Of a DNA stretch of 64,000 nt, positions 506 through 10,397 are shown in pieces. The stretch lies in assembly GCA_964491925.1 (NCBI GenBank), contig CAZBGZ010000002.1, positions 113,492 to 177,491 of the forward strand, written 5' to 3'. The translations under genes were made by a program, and so were the position numbers. A model generated the notes under the pieces. It was given only the letters and a program-made list of their open reading frames with translations. It searched no databases and was not told where the DNA came from. Each line of letters starts with the position of its first letter. The stretch's first letter is position 1. The DNA is from an uncultured Candidatus Saccharibacteria bacterium. GTDB lineage: Bacteria; Patescibacteriota; Saccharimonadia; Saccharimonadales; JAGQNJ01.

Positions 506-1876
506 CTATTGAACTATTTTTGATAGTTCGGATATTTTTATGCGTTTTTGTTTGGTAGTGTCGCGGTCGCGAACTGTCACTGTATCGTCTTCGAGAGTGT
601 CAAAGTCTATTGTTACGCAGTACGGCGTACCAATCTCGTCCTGTCGGCGGTAGCGCTTGCCGATGTTTCCATTGTCATCATATTCGCACGCATAATCTTT
701 TTTAAGCATCGCGTAGATTTCTTGAGCCTTTTTCACCAACTCAGGCTTGTTTCGCAGTAGTGGACTTACAGCAACTTTTACGGGGGCCAAAGACGGATGG
801 ATTTTTAGGACGGTGCGGGTTTCACCGTTTATTTCTTCTTCCACATACGCATCTGCAATTACAGCCAAGAACATCCGTCCCACGCCGACTGAACTCTCTA
901 TAATGTGTGGGATGTATTTTTTATCTGTTGCTTGGTCAAAATAACTAAGATCCTTGCCACTACCTTTTTGGTGCTGTGTTAGGTCATAATTACCACGGGC
1001 GTGGACACCTTCTAGCTCTTTGAAACCGAAAGGATAATTATATTCGATGTCATAGGCTTCTTTGGCGTAAAACACCAGATTTTCGTGCTTGTGCCACTTT
1101 AGGTTTTTTTCCTGGATCCCAATAGTTTTATAAAAATCCCAGCGATATTGGCGTAGCTTTTCGTAGCCTTCCATCTCGGCTTCTGGCGATAAGAAATATT
1201 GCATTTCCATCTGCTCAAGCTCGCGGGTCCGGAAAATAAACTGGCGCGGACTAATCTCGTTACGAAAAGCCTTTCCAATTTGGGCAATACCAAACGGTAC
1301 TTTTACCCGGGCGCTGTCCAGAACATTTTGATAGTTAACATAAATCCCCTGGCATGTTTCACCTCGCAAATAAGAAGGATTATCGTCAAAGTTGTCGCTA
1401 AAGTTGCCTAGATTAGCTTTTACTAGTAAGTTAAAGTTTTTTACTTGCCCAAAATCCTTTTTGCCACAGTTAGGACATTTTATCTCTTTGCGATGCTTAT
1501 CAAATAGTTTGTTAAGTTGGTCCTCTGACATTTTCTCATCTGCCTGCTCGCCTAGCTCTTCTAATGCATGGTCTGCTCTAATACGATTTTGGCAGTTTTT
1601 GCATTCGACTAATGGATCGCTAAAGCCGCCAACGTGGCCGCTAGCCTTCCAAATATCAGGATGCATAAAAATACCGCTATCTAGACCAACGATATCTTGA
1701 CGCATCTGAACCATATATTTCCACCAGGCACTTTTTAGGTTATTTGCCAGCTCGACACCGTATGGGCCATAATCATAAACTCCAGCAAACCCACCATATA
1801 TTTCACTACTCTGAAATACAAAACCACGGCGTTTACATAAACTAACAATGTCTTCGAGACTTACTTTTTTACTCAT
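506..1876 (-). CDS. glyQS: glycine--tRNA ligase (dimeric alpha2 class II type)
   Basis: 456 aa. The N-terminus 'VSLCKRRGFVFQSSEIYGG..GVYDYGPYG' is the hallmark of GlyQS-type GlyRS. Class II core and anticodon-binding C-terminus are present. Confidence 0.9.
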   Translation of the reverse strand: MSKKVSLEDIVSLCKRRGFVFQSSEIYGGFAGVYDYGPYGVELANNLKSAWWKYMVQMRQDIVGLDSGIFMHPDIWKASGHVGGFSDPLVECKNCQNRIRADHALEELGEQADEKMSEDQLNKLFDKHRKEIKCPNCGKKDFGQVKNFNLLVKANLGNFSDNFDDNPSYLRGETCQGIYVNYQNVLDSARVKVPFGIAQIGKAFRNEISPRQFIFRTRELEQMEMQYFLSPEAEMEGYEKLRQYRWDFYKTIGIQEKNLKWHKHENLVFYAKEAYDIEYNYPFGFKELEGVHARGNYDLTQHQKGSGKDLSYFDQATDKKYIPHIIESSVGVGRMFLAVIADAYVEEEINGETRTVLKIHPSLAPVKVAVSPLLRNKPELVKKAQEIYAMLKKDYACEYDDNGNIGKRYRRQDEIGTPYCVTIDFDTLEDDTVTVRDRDTTKQKRIKISELSKIVQ

Positions 1877-1902
1877 CTTGGTACTTATTGTACCAGATAT
1901 GA

Positions 1903-2415
1903 TTATTTCTTAAGTGCCTGCATATCGAGGCCAAGTTGGCAGGCAACAACAAAATCGTGCGCTGGCTTAGAAGTGTCACCAGGCAAAGGTAGTATCTGAT
2001 CGTCCTTCAATGCCCCTAACTCCATCTCGCCTCCTGGCGATATAGTTACCACAAAGCCATCGACAGGTTCATCTACTTCCAAAGCAGAACTGCCTGCAAA
2101 TCGCAAAAACTGCACTGGCAGTCGCGAACCGTCAGAGTCAAGACGCACATCTGTCAGGCTTACTCGTACACCAGCTTTAGTTTTTTCTGCTTTAATCTTG
2201 GCGGTTTGGTCTACTGTCATCCCTGGCTCAGTACCTGGCACATATCCTATGCAAATGCCCCTATCCATAAAAGGTAAATGTGCCCGCACAGAGCAACTTT
2301 TGTCCCTGCGACGATGGCGTAACTTTTTTATCATCTCCCCCATCCGACCAGCATAGTATTCTCCGTCATTAAGTAACCAAGGCTCTAGTTCTGGGTCAAC
2401 GTGTCGAGAATTCAT
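1903..2415 (-). CDS. hypothetical protein
   Basis: 170-aa ORF packed between glyQS and the next ORF on the same strand. No motif recognised. Confidence 0.5.
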   Translation of the reverse strand: MNSRHVDPELEPWLLNDGEYYAGRMGEMIKKLRHRRRDKSCSVRAHLPFMDRGICIGYVPGTEPGMTVDQTAKIKAEKTKAGVRVSLTDVRLDSDGSRLPVQFLRFAGSSALEVDEPVDGFVVTISPGGEMELGALKDDQILPLPGDTSKPAHDFVVACQLGLDMQALKK

Positions 2416-2473
2416 ATGATAATTATATCACTTTTAGCAATATTTGTAAACTATTTGCTTGTGTATCTGTATG

Positions 2474-2956
2474 TCATGTTCGTTTAGATATTGCATCCAG
2501 ACACACGCGTGCGTAAGATCCGATGTCGAACGAGTCCGCTCCAGGAAAAGCTACCTCTCCAGCAGTATCACCAACCCCTATCAAGTCTTGACCGCCATCA
2601 TAACTAATTCGAACCGCCAGAGTATTGAGATCTTCAGACTCTGGTTGAGGGAGAATTAGACCCGTCTCTGTTAAAACCCCGACTACTGATGTTGTTTCTC
2701 CAGTACCTATTCTACGAAAATCTCTTAACCCAACTAGTGTAGTTCCCTCGGGCTCTAACTGTAACACTAAATCTGCCAGTGAGTTTGGCGTTGCGTTTAA
2801 TCTGGCGCAGTGTAAGCTAATTGCACCATTCACAATAGGAACTCGAACGGGCCTTAAATCAGGCGGAGGTTCTGGAGCATAAAGTTTTTTGGTAATTCGC
2901 CCAGCACGTTCGAAATTATTCAAACCCAACTGAGCAGATATATCCACTTTTTGCAT
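2474..2956 (-). CDS. hypothetical protein (possible distant paralogue of 1903-2415)
   Basis: 160-aa ORF on the same strand. It shows weak by-eye similarity to its neighbour ('GLILPQPESED' vs 'DQILPLPGDTS', 'AQLGLNNF' vs 'CQLGLDMQ'). Confidence 0.5.
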   Translation of the reverse strand: MQKVDISAQLGLNNFERAGRITKKLYAPEPPPDLRPVRVPIVNGAISLHCARLNATPNSLADLVLQLEPEGTTLVGLRDFRRIGTGETTSVVGVLTETGLILPQPESEDLNTLAVRISYDGGQDLIGVGDTAGEVAFPGADSFDIGSYARVCLDAISKRT

Positions 2957-2991
2957 TTATATATTTTAATATATTTCGGTTAATCTGTAAA

Positions 2992-3681
2992 TTACTGGCT
3001 CGTCGATTGCATAATTAAAGATTTCAATAATCCCTCTAGGTCTTCGAGTATTTGGCCTACCCCCTCTATAGCAGCTATTTTCTGCGGAGGTTCGCCCAAT
3101 AAAAGCCGCATCAGCTTGATGTGGCTATCCCGGTAAGTCCCCTGCTCGTGGACAAAAAAAGTTTGAGTGTCAAAATCAAAGTGATAATTGTTGTTCGGCT
3201 CCAACTTTGCTCCCTTTTTATCTGTTAATAAATTGGGCGTGTGACCGCGTAGGCGCAACAACTGCATATACTGCCAGCTTTCACTAAGCACAATACTGAG
3301 GCTTGAATCGTTTAGAGCGTGCAGTGTTTGTAGTAGTACTTGATAATATTCTGGCTCGCTATGTCCTGGGGTTACAGAATTGATGAGTTTCAGTGAGTTA
3401 TAGGCTGCAGTTGTGCGATTAATTTCTTTTACGATTTCACCATAATGAGTTATTAACCTGCTGGAAACAAGCGTTCCAATATCTCGTTTCCCTCGGATAA
3501 AAGTTATATCGCTAATACTGAACAATTCAATACCCCCAGCAAGCTTGCTTTTTTCTTTGCGAACGCCCCTGGCTATCAGGCTTTGCTTGCCCTGATCAGA
3601 GGTTATGACCGTAATAATCCTATCCGCCTCACCGAAGTTAATGCGGCTAAGAACTATCCCCGTTGTGTTTATCTTGTTCAT
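2992..3681 (-). CDS. recO: DNA repair protein RecO
   Basis: 229 aa. The N-terminal OB-fold signature 'TGIVLSRINFGEADRIITVITSDQGKQSLIARGVRK' is typical of RecO. It overlaps the upstream gene by 4 nt. Confidence 0.75.
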   Translation of the reverse strand: MNKINTTGIVLSRINFGEADRIITVITSDQGKQSLIARGVRKEKSKLAGGIELFSISDITFIRGKRDIGTLVSSRLITHYGEIVKEINRTTAAYNSLKLINSVTPGHSEPEYYQVLLQTLHALNDSSLSIVLSESWQYMQLLRLRGHTPNLLTDKKGAKLEPNNNYHFDFDTQTFFVHEQGTYRDSHIKLMRLLLGEPPQKIAAIEGVGQILEDLEGLLKSLIMQSTSQ

Positions 3682-4055
3682 TTTTCAACTGCCAGTTTTA
3701 CCATTTTTACTAAAGTCTCTAATCTCATGGATGGTTTATAGCAATAATCCGTTATTCCTAAGCGCTCGCATATTTCTGTTGTCAATCCTAAGTCCTGTTT
3801 CGAAACATTAGAACATATAATTATGGGCTTTGATTTTAAATCACTATGTGACCTTAACTCGTAAAGCAACTCAATCCCGTTATTATTTGCTAACTGAATC
3901 TCCATAACAATACAGTCTGGATCATGCCTGTCTATGTATGAAATAGCATCCTGGGCAGTTTTTACAGCAGCAACATCGTAACCGGCGCGCTTTAAGACGC
4001 TAGAATAGGTTTTGCCTAGAATGGTATCTGGCTCCACCAATAGTATTAGGGCCAT
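3678..4055 (-). CDS. receiver-domain protein with Glu at the phospho-acceptor position (atypical or pseudo-receiver)
   Basis: Receiver-fold pattern: 'ILLVEPD', 'PDCIVMEIQLANNNG', 'IIICSN', 'DYCYKP'. I chose the start at ATG 4055 (MALILLVEPD). The track start at 4100 would overlap the upstream ORF by 37 nt. Confidence 0.65.
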   Translation of the reverse strand: MALILLVEPDTILGKTYSSVLKRAGYDVAAVKTAQDAISYIDRHDPDCIVMEIQLANNNGIELLYELRSHSDLKSKPIIICSNVSKQDLGLTTEICERLGITDYCYKPSMRLETLVKMVKLAVEK

Positions 4056-4063
4056 ATAAAACA

Positions 4064-4780
4064 CTATAACAGGGTTAATTGTTGGCTCGCCATAAGCCAT
4101 GCAAATAAACCGACATTACCTCGATAGTGGCCGAACTTTAGCCGAGATTCCATAGCCTCAAAAAGACGATCGGCCAGGTATACTCCTGCACCACTGTTAC
4201 TAGTCATAGTTTTGGCTGGTTGACGAGCATTCCCGTAAAGCTTTCGGGCTAATTGCAACTCTTGGGCCGAGAACTGACAATTATCGCTAGACACCCCGGT
4301 AACAACACCTCTGTTTGATTTCGAGGCGGTCAGCATAATCTGTTGCTTTGAAGAAATGCCCGAACTTACGAATGTATAAGCAATACTAGCTAGCGCAGCC
4401 CTCAGGGCTCGCACATTAGACATAACTTGACCACATTTACCATTTACTCTGATGTCTAGGTTGGTGTCATAGAGTTTTGAGAGTTTGTATAAATCTTGGG
4501 CCGTATCATAAAGAACGGCCGTGACTGAGACCGGCTCTAGTTCTAACTGTTGCTGTTCTCCTATAAGCTGGGTTGTAAGGATATAGCCATCCAACAATCT
4601 CAAAGCATTTGAGGCAGTCGTTTCAATTATCTGCAGATTATTGCCATTATCTATTTGTCCAAGTTCAGCAGATCGAGCAATTTGCATCAATGGTAGCTTT
4701 AACTCTTCGGACAATGCGCGCATCAGCCGAGTATTAGAATCGTCGACCACCCCTGTTACTTTCAACACATATACCCTCAC
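4064..4780 (-). CDS. histidine-kinase-like protein lacking the phospho-His (His to Glu) and with degenerate ATP-binding boxes
   Basis: 238 aa with no TM or sensor domain. 'LMRALSEELKLPLMQI' sits where the HisKA H-box 'SHELRTPL' would be. A G2-like 'SGAGVYLADRL' and a C-terminal 'GNVGLFAWL' are retained. Confidence 0.55.
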   Translation of the reverse strand: MRVYVLKVTGVVDDSNTRLMRALSEELKLPLMQIARSAELGQIDNGNNLQIIETTASNALRLLDGYILTTQLIGEQQQLELEPVSVTAVLYDTAQDLYKLSKLYDTNLDIRVNGKCGQVMSNVRALRAALASIAYTFVSSGISSKQQIMLTASKSNRGVVTGVSSDNCQFSAQELQLARKLYGNARQPAKTMTSNSGAGVYLADRLFEAMESRLKFGHYRGNVGLFAWLMASQQLTLL

Positions 4781-4824
4781 TTATTATAAAGCTATTGTAT
4801 CACGATGACGCGAACGAATTTTGT

Positions 4825-5487
4825 TTACGGAGTGAATTTGAAGTTTGCTAGAATGTTTTTTTCAAAGTCTTTATTGAACTGATCTGCTTCTGTCCAGATT
4901 CTGATTGTTTTATCCCTAAGAGGCAACAAAACCAATACGCCGTTTTCTTGATTGCCTATATCACCAGTAAGTCGTGACCCAATTATGTTTTCTACGTTCA
5001 CTGGCTTGTATGGACTAGCCTTGGTTTTGCCTTGTTTTACGCTAGAGTCGAAAGATTGTAACTCGTCTGCGTATGGCCTATTTGTAACCTGGACTCTCAG
5101 CGCAAATGACGTATCCGACTGTAACCCCGGAACAAAATTCGGATGGAAATAGCCATCAACACCCATAGAGCTCTTCCCGCTCTCGTCTACATAAGCACTC
5201 CAGGTTTTAGGATATTTTATAGTAACACTCCCATATGACGCAGGCCCTTTGTACTCTTTTAAGGGTTGCTTCTCGCGCTCGATAAACTCGTTATCCTTTG
5301 TGGTCGCTGTTTCTTTTTTAGCTATATCAACAGCAGTCGCAATTTTTTCATCAACGTTATTCTTATAATCTTGCCGACTAGAGTAAGCCCACAGACCAAA
5401 ACCCAAGCTAGCAAAGAAAAATACCAGGCTAAGTATGAGTGGTATCAGTAATATATTTATAGAACCATCTTGGCCCGTTCGCTTCAT
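4825..5487 (-). CDS. membrane-anchored extracytoplasmic protein, unknown function
   Basis: 220 aa. One N-terminal TM segment (ILLIPLILSLVFFFASLGFGLWAY) is followed by a soluble domain. No motif recognised. Confidence 0.6.
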   Translation of the reverse strand: MKRTGQDGSINILLIPLILSLVFFFASLGFGLWAYSSRQDYKNNVDEKIATAVDIAKKETATTKDNEFIEREKQPLKEYKGPASYGSVTIKYPKTWSAYVDESGKSSMGVDGYFHPNFVPGLQSDTSFALRVQVTNRPYADELQSFDSSVKQGKTKASPYKPVNVENIIGSRLTGDIGNQENGVLVLLPLRDKTIRIWTEADQFNKDFEKNILANFKFTP

Positions 5488-5531
5488 ACTGCTAATGGTA
5501 TAACATTACAATACACTCTGGCAAGCTATAT

Positions 5532-6032
5532 TTAGTACTTGTATAGGTATAGGCCTTCTATTTGCTTGACTGGTTTCTTGCTATTGATGATGAACGCGAA
5601 ACTGACCAAAGAGATATTTTTTAGTTTTGACTGGGTAATTTTTTTATCCAGTTTTTCCATATAAGGCTGTAGTAAAAACACAAAAATGCCGTCGGTTTTC
5701 GGCCATTCAGCCTTCCAATAGTTCCCCCATATTATTTGGACTTGTTTGCGATACTTGAATGTAATCAACTTTGAATAAATCACCAGTAGCGGGTTTAGTT
5801 CGTATCCAACTGCATTGAGACCCCGACCCGCCGCAGCACGCAACAACCGACCATCACCACTGCCTAGCTCCAGTAGAGTCTGGCCTTTTTTTAAATTGAG
5901 CATTTTTAATGCCAAAGGTACTTTAGCGCGCAAAGTCGGTAAATATGGTGCTCCGTAAGCTACAACAAAGGTAAATGCAATAAAAACGATCGCGCATACT
6001 AACAGGGTTGTATTCCAGATAATATCAAGCAT
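5532..6032 (-). CDS. class I SAM-dependent methyltransferase with N-terminal TM anchor
   Basis: 166 aa. It has an N-terminal hydrophobic helix, then a motif I-like 'LLELGSGDGRLL' and 'AVGYELNP'. Confidence 0.6.
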   Translation of the reverse strand: MLDIIWNTTLLVCAIVFIAFTFVVAYGAPYLPTLRAKVPLALKMLNLKKGQTLLELGSGDGRLLRAAAGRGLNAVGYELNPLLVIYSKLITFKYRKQVQIIWGNYWKAEWPKTDGIFVFLLQPYMEKLDKKITQSKLKNISLVSFAFIINSKKPVKQIEGLYLYKY

Positions 6033-6048
6033 ATTTTGGCCTAAATAA

Positions 6049-6270
6049 CTATTTATTCACTCTCTTTAGGGTATTTTCAGCAGTATCTAGATATTTTTTT
6101 ATCTGTTTTGTTATTTTTGTAGCCTGCTCGAACTTAATCACCGCCTCGTCTATATCTATTTCTTCACTCTGTAACTCAGAAATTATCGTGTCTAGTTCTT
6201 CCTGAAGTTCTTTATAAGATTTTTTGTTAACCATGTCTCTATTGTACCTCTGCTTTCGTTGTTCCATCAT
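6049..6270 (-). CDS. xseB: exodeoxyribonuclease VII small subunit
   Basis: Small helical protein ('SYKELQEELDTIISELQSEEIDIDEAVIKFEQ') directly downstream of xseA. The alternative start ATG 6234 (MVNKKSY) would remove the 32-nt overlap with xseA. Confidence 0.75.
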   Translation of the reverse strand: MMEQRKQRYNRDMVNKKSYKELQEELDTIISELQSEEIDIDEAVIKFEQATKITKQIKKYLDTAENTLKRVNK

Positions 6271-7345
6271 AAAATTCTATTACTACTTCATCACCAGCAA
6301 TTACGGCTGTTTTTGACTTAACTACACTGTTATTCTTTCTAACCACAGAATAGCCTCTCTTGAGGACGTTTTGAGGGTTGAGACTACCAAGTATATCTTC
6401 TCTGGATTTTAGGAAAAGCTTACTATTTTCGACTTTGCTCTCGATTTTATGAGCCATCATTTCAATTATTCTGTCTATTTCATGCCTGGTATTATTAATA
6501 ATTGACTTAACCAATTGTTCGACAATAACAGCCCGTTGTTCTGCATGGCTAATGACGTCATTCTTGTCTGGGACCAGTAGTTCTGCAGCATTGCTTGGCG
6601 TACTCGCATGAACATCCGCAACTCTTTCGGCTAGACTAACATCACGTTCGTGCCCGATTGCCACCAAAGTTGGTGCTCTACTACCAGCAATAGCCCGTGC
6701 AACTTGTTCTATACTAAATACCTGTAAGTCATCAAGGCTACCACCACCCCTAGTTATGACTAGCACTTCTGGCGGATTCGATAGCTGGTTGAAATGTGAT
6801 ATTGCCGACACAATCTGTTTTGGGGCATCATCCCCCTGGACCTGAACATCGTAATGCAGAATTTCTACACCTGCCCATCGCGCATTTAGTATTTTAGTGA
6901 AGTCGCTAAACGCTGCAGATTCTCCCGAAGTTATCAAGCCTAAGCTGCGGGGTGGATACGGAATTGTGCGTTTTCTGCTAGTGTCAAACAGGCCTTCTTT
7001 TTGTAGTTTTGCTTCTAGTAATTTGCTGGCTTTTTTTATTGTGCCTTCCCCAGTTAGACTAATCAATTGGACATTAATGCTGAAGCCAAACTGAGGGTGC
7101 AACTGTGGTGCCCCACTGACTTTCAGCAACATTCCGTCCGTCAGTGGCCCTGGTAGTTGGTAAATTGTCCCGAAGAATTTAACACTAGAATACTCGTCTT
7201 TGAGGTCAAAATAGACCCACCTATTTTTGCTAACTCGGAAGTTGCTCAGCTCGCCCTCAATGGTTACGACTGGATAGGCATAGTTAATTGTTTGATTAAA
7301 AACTGCTACAAAATCCGTAACAGTGAACAAGATATCCTGGCTCAT
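6239..7345 (-). CDS. xseA: exodeoxyribonuclease VII large subunit
   Basis: 368 aa. It has an N-terminal OB-fold region (VAVFNQTINYAYPVVTIEGELSNFRVSKNRWVYFDLKD) and a catalytic core 'ITRGGGSLDDL'. It is paired with xseB. Confidence 0.85.
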   Translation of the reverse strand: MSQDILFTVTDFVAVFNQTINYAYPVVTIEGELSNFRVSKNRWVYFDLKDEYSSVKFFGTIYQLPGPLTDGMLLKVSGAPQLHPQFGFSINVQLISLTGEGTIKKASKLLEAKLQKEGLFDTSRKRTIPYPPRSLGLITSGESAAFSDFTKILNARWAGVEILHYDVQVQGDDAPKQIVSAISHFNQLSNPPEVLVITRGGGSLDDLQVFSIEQVARAIAGSRAPTLVAIGHERDVSLAERVADVHASTPSNAAELLVPDKNDVISHAEQRAVIVEQLVKSIINNTRHEIDRIIEMMAHKIESKVENSKLFLKSREDILGSLNPQNVLKRGYSVVRKNNSVVKSKTAVIAGDEVVIEFYDGTTKAEVQ

Positions 7346-10016: not shown

Positions 10017-10397
10017 TTACACTCTGCCAAGGTGGTGTTTGATACGCTCAACGACGTCAGCAATAACAACTTGTGATTTTACTAGATAGTCGTCTGCTCC
10101 TAACTTTTCGGCTTTGTCTTTATCGGAATCTTGACTCAATGCAGTCAGCATCACTACTTTCAGATTGGCTGTTTCGGGCGTGTTTCTGAGTATGTCGAGG
10201 ACATCAAATCCACTAACTTTAGGCATCATTACGTCCAAAACAATTAGGTCGGGCTTATATTCTATGGCGGAAGCTAGGGCATCTTCACCGTTGGGTACGC
10301 GTTTAACAGCAAACCCTTCCGTCTCGAGACGCATTTTATAAACATTCGCTAAGCCATCGTCGTCTTCGACTAAAAGTATCTTTTTTTGTGAACTCAT
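10017..10397 (-). CDS. single-domain response regulator (CheY-like, canonical)
   Basis: 126 aa. 'ILLVEDDD', 'PDLIVLDVMMPKVSGFDVL', 'VVMLTAL' and 'DDYLVKS' show that all receiver signature residues are present. There is no output domain and no kinase nearby. Confidence 0.85.
   Translation of the reverse strand: MSSQKKILLVEDDDGLANVYKMRLETEGFAVKRVPNGEDALASAIEYKPDLIVLDVMMPKVSGFDVLDILRNTPETANLKVVMLTALSQDSDKDKAEKLGADDYLVKSQVVIADVVERIKHHLGRV

Follow-up and report, generated by a model that had tools for sequence, protein, structure and literature searches.

How can a kinase and a receiver of the two-component type persist as a pair when the residues that pass the phosphoryl group have gone from both? 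This question is raised by two adjacent genes in a 64,000-nucleotide stretch of DNA from an uncultured Candidatus Saccharibacteria bacterium (GenBank assembly GCA_964491925.1, contig CAZBGZ010000002.1, positions 113,492 to 177,491), which is referred to as the window throughout. The genes encode a histidine kinase-like protein and a receiver-like protein, and with recO they make up three closely spaced genes on the minus strand, in the order kinase-like, receiver-like, recO. An initial annotation had placed both genes correctly, and had proposed that glutamate occupies both phosphorylation sites and that the pair is a co-evolved module that works without phosphoryl transfer. Pseudo-kinases and pseudo-receivers of two-component systems are common and poorly understood. 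We find that both proteins are predicted to keep their folds, that their catalytic residues appear to have been lost across a whole clade under purifying selection, and that in other Saccharimonadales a canonical kinase and receiver stand at the identical position.

The kinase-like open reading frame as listed is 4064-4780, the span given in the initial annotation. The likelier gene is 4064..4768 (minus strand, 234 amino acids), because the closest homologues have 234 residues and the alternative GTG start at 4768 has a GAGG six bases upstream; the frame may extend to the GTG at 4780. The protein has no sensor and no membrane segment, as had been noted, and about 16 residues precede its H-box. 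No match was found in Pfam (HATPase_c included) or in NCBIfam, and fold and profile searches were therefore used.

The AlphaFold2 model, built from a 111-sequence alignment (predicted local distance difference test score, pLDDT, 90.6; predicted template modelling score 0.89), contains two long helices (residues 10-40 and 45-70) that form the hairpin of a dimerisation and histidine phosphotransfer (DHp) domain, followed by an alpha/beta catalytic and ATP-binding (CA) domain. A Foldseek search of the Protein Data Bank (PDB) with this model gave as its best match HK853, in its complex with RR468 (E 3e-11, template modelling score, TM, ~0.7 over 233 columns), and then DivL, CusS, an EnvZ chimera, ZraS and RetS. 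The profile of the family, compared with PDB kinases, matched the hybrid kinase 6qrj (E 2e-5), then CpxA, DivL and ZraS. The DHp plus CA layout of the initial annotation thus stands on the model, the structural matches and the family profile, though not on a direct Pfam match. Anti-sigma GHKL kinases of the SpoIIAB/RsbW type, which have no DHp hairpin, were considered for this protein and rejected.

In the profile alignments the 'AEELKLPL' of the family falls on the 'SHEFRTPL' of solved kinases. Glu21 (GAA, 4706..4708, minus strand), in 'LSEELKLPL', occupies the phospho-His column of the H-box in four independent and agreeing alignments: the PDB-kinase profile, phmmer against the EnvZ chimera, hhalign against HK853 (of which only the well-known motifs were used) and MAFFT with the canonical orthologues described below. 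The glutamate predicted at this position is confirmed. Among PDB chains, the best-scoring CpxA chain for the family profile is 4biz_A, a variant with 'SEELRTPL' and Glu at the His position, which scores slightly higher than the wild-type 'SHELRTPL' chains of CpxA.

The MAFFT alignment also bears out the absence of the N-box Asn and of the Asp in the G1 box, together with the survival of two G2 glycines, in 'SGAGV'. Across 266 members of the family these two positions are Gly in 191/266 and 252/266, and the ATP-lid segment is conserved. The HisKA phosphatase motif H-E/D-x-x-T/N is missing, the fourth residue after the His column being Leu in 179/266. A protein that has the DHp and CA fold of a competent HisKA kinase, with no His, N-box Asn, G1 DxGxG or phosphatase motif, fits the description of a pseudo-histidine kinase as far as sequence and model can tell: the kinase fold kept and one or more kinase functions lost, in the sense of Collins and Childers, summarised in PMC12632262.

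The receiver-like gene (3678..4064, minus strand) encodes a single-domain protein of 128 residues from a GTG at 4064 or of 125 residues from an ATG at 4055. The ATG start agrees with the N-termini of most homologues. The GTG start is that of a 128-residue NCBI protein (P0121), which is 100% identical to the receiver across the 125 residues queried (3678-4055), and it overlaps the stop codon of the kinase-like gene by 1 nt (TAGTG). The protein matches Response_reg (PF00072) with 60.6 bits (E 1.9e-16, cut-off 30.2). Its AlphaFold2 model (pLDDT 84.7) has the (beta-alpha)5 fold, and RR468 is its best match in the PDB, with KdpE also found, at a TM of ~0.8.

The active-site residues of the receiver were placed by pairwise HMMER alignments to solved receivers and by a MAFFT alignment with CheY. 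Glu55 (GAG, 3900..3902, minus strand), in 'IVMEIQL', takes the column of the phospho-Asp, D57 in CheY, and Glu11-Pro12 (4029..4034, minus strand) replaces the metal-binding Asp-Asp pair, D12/D13 in CheY. Ser85 (3810-3812, minus strand), the equivalent of T87, and Lys110 (3735..3737, minus strand), the equivalent of K109, are kept, and Pro111 corresponds to P110. These assignments agree with the first reading of the receiver, which had reported Glu at the phosphorylation site, an altered acidic pocket 'VEPD' and a retained Ser/Thr and Lys. The fold, the Ser/Thr and the Lys of a phosphorylatable receiver are therefore present, and the phospho-Asp and the acidic Mg2+ pair are absent. A pseudo-receiver has been defined as a computationally recognised receiver that lacks at least one of five active-site residues (PMC12632262), and by this definition the alignments make the window protein a pseudo-receiver of the aspartate-less kind.

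Taken together, the kinase-like protein has no His, no ATP-binding Asn and Asp and no phosphatase T/N, and the receiver has no Asp and no Mg site. On the strength of these sequence features and of the models, the exclusion of His-to-Asp phosphotransfer for the window pair is well founded, and the loss of phosphoryl transfer proposed in the initial annotation is supported.

Is this state a recent accident of one genome? A word-indexed search found 182 relatives of the kinase-like protein, none of which has a Pfam domain on record; where the source identifies the organism it is a Saccharibacterium or an evident mislabel. When 1.84 billion cluster representatives were searched exhaustively with a profile, 293 kinase relatives were found at E <= 1e-30. 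The family has no Pfam or NCBIfam model, and its members are mostly annotated as hypothetical. The His column, counted in members from the protein searches rather than from the genome scan, is E in 214 of 266 members, D in 24, Q in 13 and H in four, with rare A, N, R, Y and L. In the same 266 proteins the N-box column is mainly S, A, V, T or G and the G1 Asp column mainly S, G, T, A or V, so that neither Asn nor Asp is among the five commonest residues at its own position.

The partner receivers were examined in 80 loci from species-representative genomes. As the search pattern forced AE[EQ][LV]K[LV]PL at the kinase His column, these loci give no estimate of that column, but the receivers were not selected by the pattern. 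The genes follow one another in an order that hardly varies: xseA-xseB-methyltransferase-membrane protein-kinase homologue-receiver-recO-(variable)-glyS. Both genes are near full length in 76 of the 80 loci, the contig stopping before or inside the receiver gene in the other four, and these 76, five extra loci and the window make up 82 pairs. The receiver column of CheY D57 is Glu in 77/77 genome loci and in five further ones, hence in 82/82. The D12 column is Glu in 78/78, the D13 column is Pro in 77/78 and Ser in one, the T87 column is Ser or Thr in 77/77 and the Lys column is Lys in 77/77. The Asp that follows Glu-Pro in the window receiver has become Asn in many members. The stop and start codons of the two genes overlap or nearly abut in all 82 pairs.

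The five extra pairs have N, D, Q, A or H at the kinase column, and the receiver has Glu in every one of them. The expectation that Glu would be conserved at both sites is therefore borne out for the receiver (82/82) and in part for the kinase (214/266). This weakens a strict argument from co-evolution towards one phosphomimetic residue: Glu does stand at both sites in the window, but the kinase column varies and the receiver Glu is fixed whatever the kinase carries.

Between the window and its 93% identical relative (L001), dN/dS is 0.088 for the kinase homologue, 0.086 for the receiver and 0.028 for recO. In the same comparison recO has a dS of 1.29, against 0.46 in the kinase homologue and 0.47 in the receiver. 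Synonymous divergence is thus uneven over adjacent genes, which could stem from recombination or from constraint on codon usage. At greater depth the amino-acid divergence of the kinase homologue and the receiver proceeds at about the rate of RecO. Both genes are under purifying selection. Recent pseudogenisation is rejected on a dN/dS of ~0.09 and on the breadth of the clade, and these two features together indicate a dead state that is conserved across one large and deep clade of Saccharibacteria, not one of decay. The initial annotation had leaned towards a conserved state rather than recent decay, and the 266 kinases, the 82 receivers and the dN/dS ratios agree with it.

It could still be argued that the genes are non-functional relics on their way to being lost, since both catalytic centres are destroyed. 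We give this next to no credence. Besides the low dN/dS, the reading frames are intact in all 82 pairs, in lineages down to 32-40% identity, many residues are invariant, and the genomes concerned are reduced to about 1 Mb and shed dispensable genes.

If the state is old, what did it derive from? The most distant receiver match (P0140, 36% identity) has DDD, D, S and K in its active site. Its contig has the same gene order, and the slot of the kinase is taken by a 244-residue sensorless protein with a Pfam HATPase_c domain and the motifs 'AAHELKAPL', 'NFADNALHY', 'DYGPGL' and 'SSGLGL'. A search with this kinase listed 120 close homologues, two of them placed in Candidatus Saccharimonadales by their NCBI names. 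The H, the N-box Asn, the G1 Asp and G413 are present in 120/120 and the G2 glycines in 119-120/120. Four further loci (L083, L084, L085 and L091) have identical synteny, which extends to a lysyl-phosphatidylglycerol-synthase-like gene, a UPF0020 methyltransferase and rpmA, and their partner receivers are canonical. Canonical pairs stand at the same position in these four loci and in L081. The presence of a canonical kinase and receiver at the identical position in other Saccharimonadales is new here.

The canonical orthologues (for example L083, L085 and P0287) resemble the window proteins in synteny, in length (~245 and ~124 residues), in having no sensor and in the shared motifs 'LEPV', 'ELRSHxDL' and a C-terminal 'QLxLL'. 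They differ in that the kinase has the His, the N-box Asn, DxGxG and GLGL and reaches Pfam HATPase_c, and in that the receiver has the acidic pair (DD; ED in L083), the D, the S/T and the K. A hidden Markov model (HMM) built from the canonical kinases matches the window kinase at E 1.1e-13 and has no second match in the 64-kb window. When a neighbour-joining tree is rooted on HK853, dead kinases and canonical ones form reciprocally monophyletic sets; this is a distance tree without bootstrap and is indicative.

In the canonical loci, RecO is 36-41% and XseA 41-45% identical to the window protein; in the dead clade the corresponding ranges are 40-70% and 44-62%. The flanking housekeeping proteins of the canonical loci are also the more distant ones, and the split between dead and canonical pairs therefore tracks organismal lineages. 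For the kinase the ranges are 24% in canonical loci and 32-93% in the dead clade, and for the receiver 33-46% and 32-91%. As judged from these identities (24% against 36-41% for RecO and 33-46% for the receiver), the kinase has changed since the split to a much greater extent than the proteins encoded beside it, and the receiver has not. Entropy was compared within clades only, as the two sets were sampled at different depths.

Because a canonical pair occupies the identical syntenic position, the sequence comparisons identify the dead pair as a clade-wide derivative of a working system, made up of a sensorless cytoplasmic kinase and a single-domain receiver. The initial annotation had held that orthologues with ordinary H and D residues would signify recent decay. 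Such orthologues do exist; they belong to a separate clade and mark the ancestral state. It had also attached weight to the linkage with recO, which has no special meaning for the Glu/Glu state: canonical pairs are linked to recO likewise, and the linkage is therefore older than the residue change.

Several observations concern the sources of these sequences. P0390 and P0106, which both list a longest contig of 27,137 bp, had raised the possibility that a dead-clade contig also carries a canonical paralogue; this was rejected, the shared length being a coincidence between different samples. L083 (GCA_033792395.1, JARAUW010000001.1, 957,675 bp) carries the source label Streptomyces caniscabiei, although its contig has the full Saccharibacteria gene order here, in a 10.7-kb locus of 52% GC; it is probably the genome of a Saccharibacteria epibiont inside a Streptomyces assembly. 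L022, labelled Limnocylindria, looks mislabelled in like manner.

The dead clade contains some evidence on the order in which the residues were lost. Four family members keep the His and are already without the Asn and the Asp of the CA domain. One of these, P0250, is the first branch within the dead clade in the unbootstrapped neighbour-joining tree. A metagenome scan for members with a retained His and a dead CA domain returned one locus, L090, which is 98% identical to P0250, and its partner receiver already has Glu-Ser and Glu. Based on this one lineage, the sequences tentatively suggest that the loss of ATP binding and of the receiver Asp came first, and that the His, by then useless, went on to drift, chiefly towards acidic or amide residues. 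Reversion to His is a possible alternative for the His-bearing members.

The same four proteins bear on the question of residual phosphotransfer, in which another kinase would target a different residue or the His-bearing members would act in the manner of ChpT or Spo0B. ChpT and Spo0B are small soluble dimers in which a DHp-like bundle is joined to a CA-like domain that no longer binds ATP, so that their architecture is that of a DHp domain followed by a degenerate CA domain. The window protein is predicted to have both parts, with Glu21 in place of the phospho-His. ChpT and Spo0B differ from the window pair in that their phospho-His is retained and passes phosphate from one genuine receiver to another, whereas the partner of the window protein has no Asp. 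Neither does the partner in L090, where the kinase column is His, have an acceptor Asp. With no ATP-binding residues left in the kinases, no His at the column in the window protein and the Asp after Glu-Pro turned to Asn in many receivers, residual phosphotransfer appears very improbable.

What, then, might the pair do? We lean, with modest confidence, towards a phosphorylation-independent complex of kinase and receiver resembling that of DivL with phosphorylated DivK. This reading draws on the strict adjacency in 82 pairs, on the conservation of kinase helix 1 and of the receiver beta1-alpha1 block, on the structural matches and on the precedent of DivL, which keeps its response-regulator docking face and binds phosphorylated DivK without catalysis (PMC4211667). 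No part of the kinase is better conserved than the stretch of helix 1 that surrounds the His column (entropy 1.49, compared with 2.13 for the CA domain), and I30, A31, R32, E35 and L36 are each at least 90% conserved. In the receiver the beta1-alpha1 block 'LLiEPd..La..Y' is conserved. The closest solved structures of the two proteins, HK853 and RR468, are themselves a cognate pair.

In such a complex the dead kinase and the receiver would still meet at the classical docking interface, with helix 1 of the DHp domain set against helix 1 of the receiver. The receiver Glu, with the kept Ser/Thr and Lys, would hold the receiver in an active-like, 'permanently phosphorylated' form, which fits the phosphomimetic idea discussed in PMC12632262, and the kinase dimer would bind this form as the pseudokinase DivL binds phosphorylated DivK. 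Output could pass through the invariant helix-3 block of the receiver, 'EFLYELRSH'. In the form 'LL(H/Y)E(L/F)RS(H/Y)xD' this block is common to dead and canonical receivers, which makes it a candidate output surface older than the change. Control would probably have shifted from phosphorylation to protein level, through translational coupling with recO, or else to a ligand. The former ATP lid, 'ARQP...SGAGVFVAD', is conserved though the catalytic residues are gone, and we speculate that it might have taken on a new role in ligand binding or contact and might serve as the site of such a ligand.

A number of points weigh against a complex of this kind. Inter-protein covariation (mutual information with average product correction, 82 pairs, effective number of sequences 75) gave its top pairs only at variable termini and loops, in a test without power because the interface positions are nearly invariant. 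A specific contact between the two glutamates is unlikely on the alignments, as E, D, Q, H, N and A all occur at the kinase column and the receiver has Glu in every case, and two facing carboxylates would repel each other unless Lys110 or a metal bridged them. In some pseudo-receivers the idea that Glu mimics phosphorylation has been disproved (PMC12632262). Lastly, the identity of the kinase to its canonical orthologues is 24%, compared with 33-46% for the receiver and 36-41% for RecO, and this excess divergence could mean that the kinase acquired a different job.

Some of these points would suit an independent repurposing of the two proteins, in which the receiver would act as a constitutively active adaptor and the kinase as a dimeric scaffold with another partner, the two not interacting and the genes staying adjacent solely through inherited operon structure. 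The faster divergence of the kinase, the lack of any covariation signal (with the low power just described) and the independence of the receiver Glu from the kinase His-column residue are in keeping with it, and there is the example of PsmA, in which the kinase-like N-terminal part does the work and the receiver domain is not needed for it (PMC12963549). The overlapping or near-abutting adjacency in every one of the 82 pairs and the conservation of the helix around the former His, higher than anywhere else in the kinase, speak for a retained interaction, and we consider independent repurposing unlikely.

A third partner may also be at hand. A canonical orphan receiver of a single domain lies beside rpmA (L27) at 10017..10397 on the minus strand; its match to PF00072 scores 84 bits, and DD, D, T and K are all there. 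The initial annotation had likewise called it canonical. In L091, of the canonical clade, a 127-residue Response_reg gene is found at the same place beside rpmA (504-887). The orphan receiver is a possible interaction partner or competitor for the pair. By analogy with DivL, the dead kinase might bind the phosphorylated orphan receiver, the Glu receiver acting as a constitutive competitor or decoy for the docking site. The occurrence of the gene in L091 as well, the intact active site of the window copy, the highly conserved docking helix of the kinase and the DivL precedent (PMC4211667) are in favour of such an arrangement. The HMM from canonical kinases, however, found no phosphodonor in the 64-kb window, and the dead kinase and the Glu receiver, being so tightly coupled in translation, look like 1:1 partners of each other, so that we hold the arrangement to be improbable.

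A more ambitious version of the favoured complex would have a complete two-component system turn into a phosphate-free module in one evolutionary step within Saccharibacteria. The dead kinase dimer and the Glu-locked receiver would form an obligate complex, a small ligand or metal at the former ATP lid or at the acidic His/Asp junction would set its state, and its target would be that of the working orthologue, possibly ExoVII/RecO repair and recombination or the orphan canonical receiver. This reading is doubtful, though it is worth bearing in mind. If this were true, the locus would offer a natural before-and-after pair for the replacement of phosphorelay logic.

The remaining features of the locus concern its neighbours. 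The third gene of the unit, recO (2992..3681, minus strand), matches RecO_N with 73 bits, RecO_C, and TIGR00613 with 87 bits. Its start and the stop of the receiver gene overlap by 4 nt (ATGA), so that the receiver lies directly upstream of recO as had been reported, and the order kinase-receiver-recO holds in 73/73 loci long enough to include recO. Upstream of the kinase gene, at 4825..5487 on the minus strand, lies a gene for a protein of 220 residues that has a single transmembrane helix, near its N-terminus, and matches no family. It is syntenic with the pair in the dead and canonical clades alike and is a candidate partner.

A scan of 1800-6300 for promoters and terminators found no terminator between the kinase, receiver and recO genes, and 10 promoter-like sites where 10.8 were expected from shuffled sequences. 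As this is the level of the shuffles, nothing is concluded beyond the packing of the genes. Frames of 170 and 160 residues (1903-2956, minus strand), with no Pfam match, fill the variable gap between recO and glyS, and a promoter-like site precedes each (11/12 and 10/12 matches). The length of this gap in related loci ranges from ~30 nt to 2.5 kb. The glycyl-tRNA synthetases of three loci (L022 6322-7665, L047 5787-7154 and L071 6937-8277) are 81-86% identical to that of the window (506-1876, ~450 residues), whereas the kinase homologue, receiver, RecO and XseA of the same loci are 36-56% identical to those of the window. These identities suggest lateral exchange of glyS among Saccharibacteria.

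The interest of the locus lies in the fact that both partners of one operon are dead and yet purifying selection preserves them throughout a deep clade whose genomes are very small, and that relatives keep the intact version at the same locus. These relatives are matched natural controls, and they bear on the role of the pair without phosphate, on the order of residue loss and on the mimicry of phosphorylation by Glu. In the literature searched we found no described operon whose two cognate partners are both dead, are conserved throughout a clade and have canonical positional orthologues, which is not proof of absence, and nothing on this pair in work on the two-component systems of Saccharibacteria, Patescibacteria or Southlakia. 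The impact is limited by the fact that each kind of degeneracy has its own precedent. On the kinase side RetS is such a precedent, besides DivL and PsmA, and pseudo-receivers are known singly elsewhere, as the initial annotation had stated of both partner types.

HisKA domains without the His make up 0.9% and receivers without the Asp 2%, and Glu, which can be phosphomimetic, is the commonest replacement of the phospho-Asp in pseudo-receivers (PMC12632262). Plant PRRs, fungal Rim15p and FrzS resemble the window receiver in that the fold is kept and the Asp replaced, and their function is independent of phosphorylation (PMC12632262). Searches with the window receiver, by sequence and by structure, returned FrzS among their matches. 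Most characterised bacterial pseudo-receivers are orphans (PMC12632262); unlike the PRR, Rim15p and FrzS group, the window pseudo-receiver is translationally coupled to a dead kinase of the cognate type.

PsmA of Streptomyces has Glu at the His column in S. venezuelae and Asp, Gln, Val or Tyr among its orthologues, and acts by protein-protein interaction (PMC12963549). This spectrum of residues matches that of the dead-clade kinases. PsmA is also similar to the window kinase in its degenerate ATP-binding motifs and in the loss of the phosphatase motif (PMC12963549). It differs from the window pair in being a hybrid of more than 1,270 residues that binds DivIVA and whose receiver domain retains the Asp, and no canonical positional orthologue of it has been described.

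In the DivL-DivK system of Caulobacter crescentus, as in the window kinase, the fold is kept and the phospho-His is replaced; the DHp docking face for a single-domain receiver is retained in DivL (PMC4211667) and predicted to be so in the window kinase. DivL, one of the top structural matches of the window kinase, has no kinase or phosphatase activity and binds ATP poorly (PMC4211667), as would be expected of the window kinase too. It differs from the window kinase in having Tyr rather than Glu at the His column, and in its PAS sensor domains and membrane anchor. DivK, unlike the window receiver, is a genuine phosphorylatable receiver with kinases of its own. The window pair is set apart from DivL and DivK by a partner receiver that is also dead and by a kinase homologue that consists of the DHp and CA domains with no extra domain.

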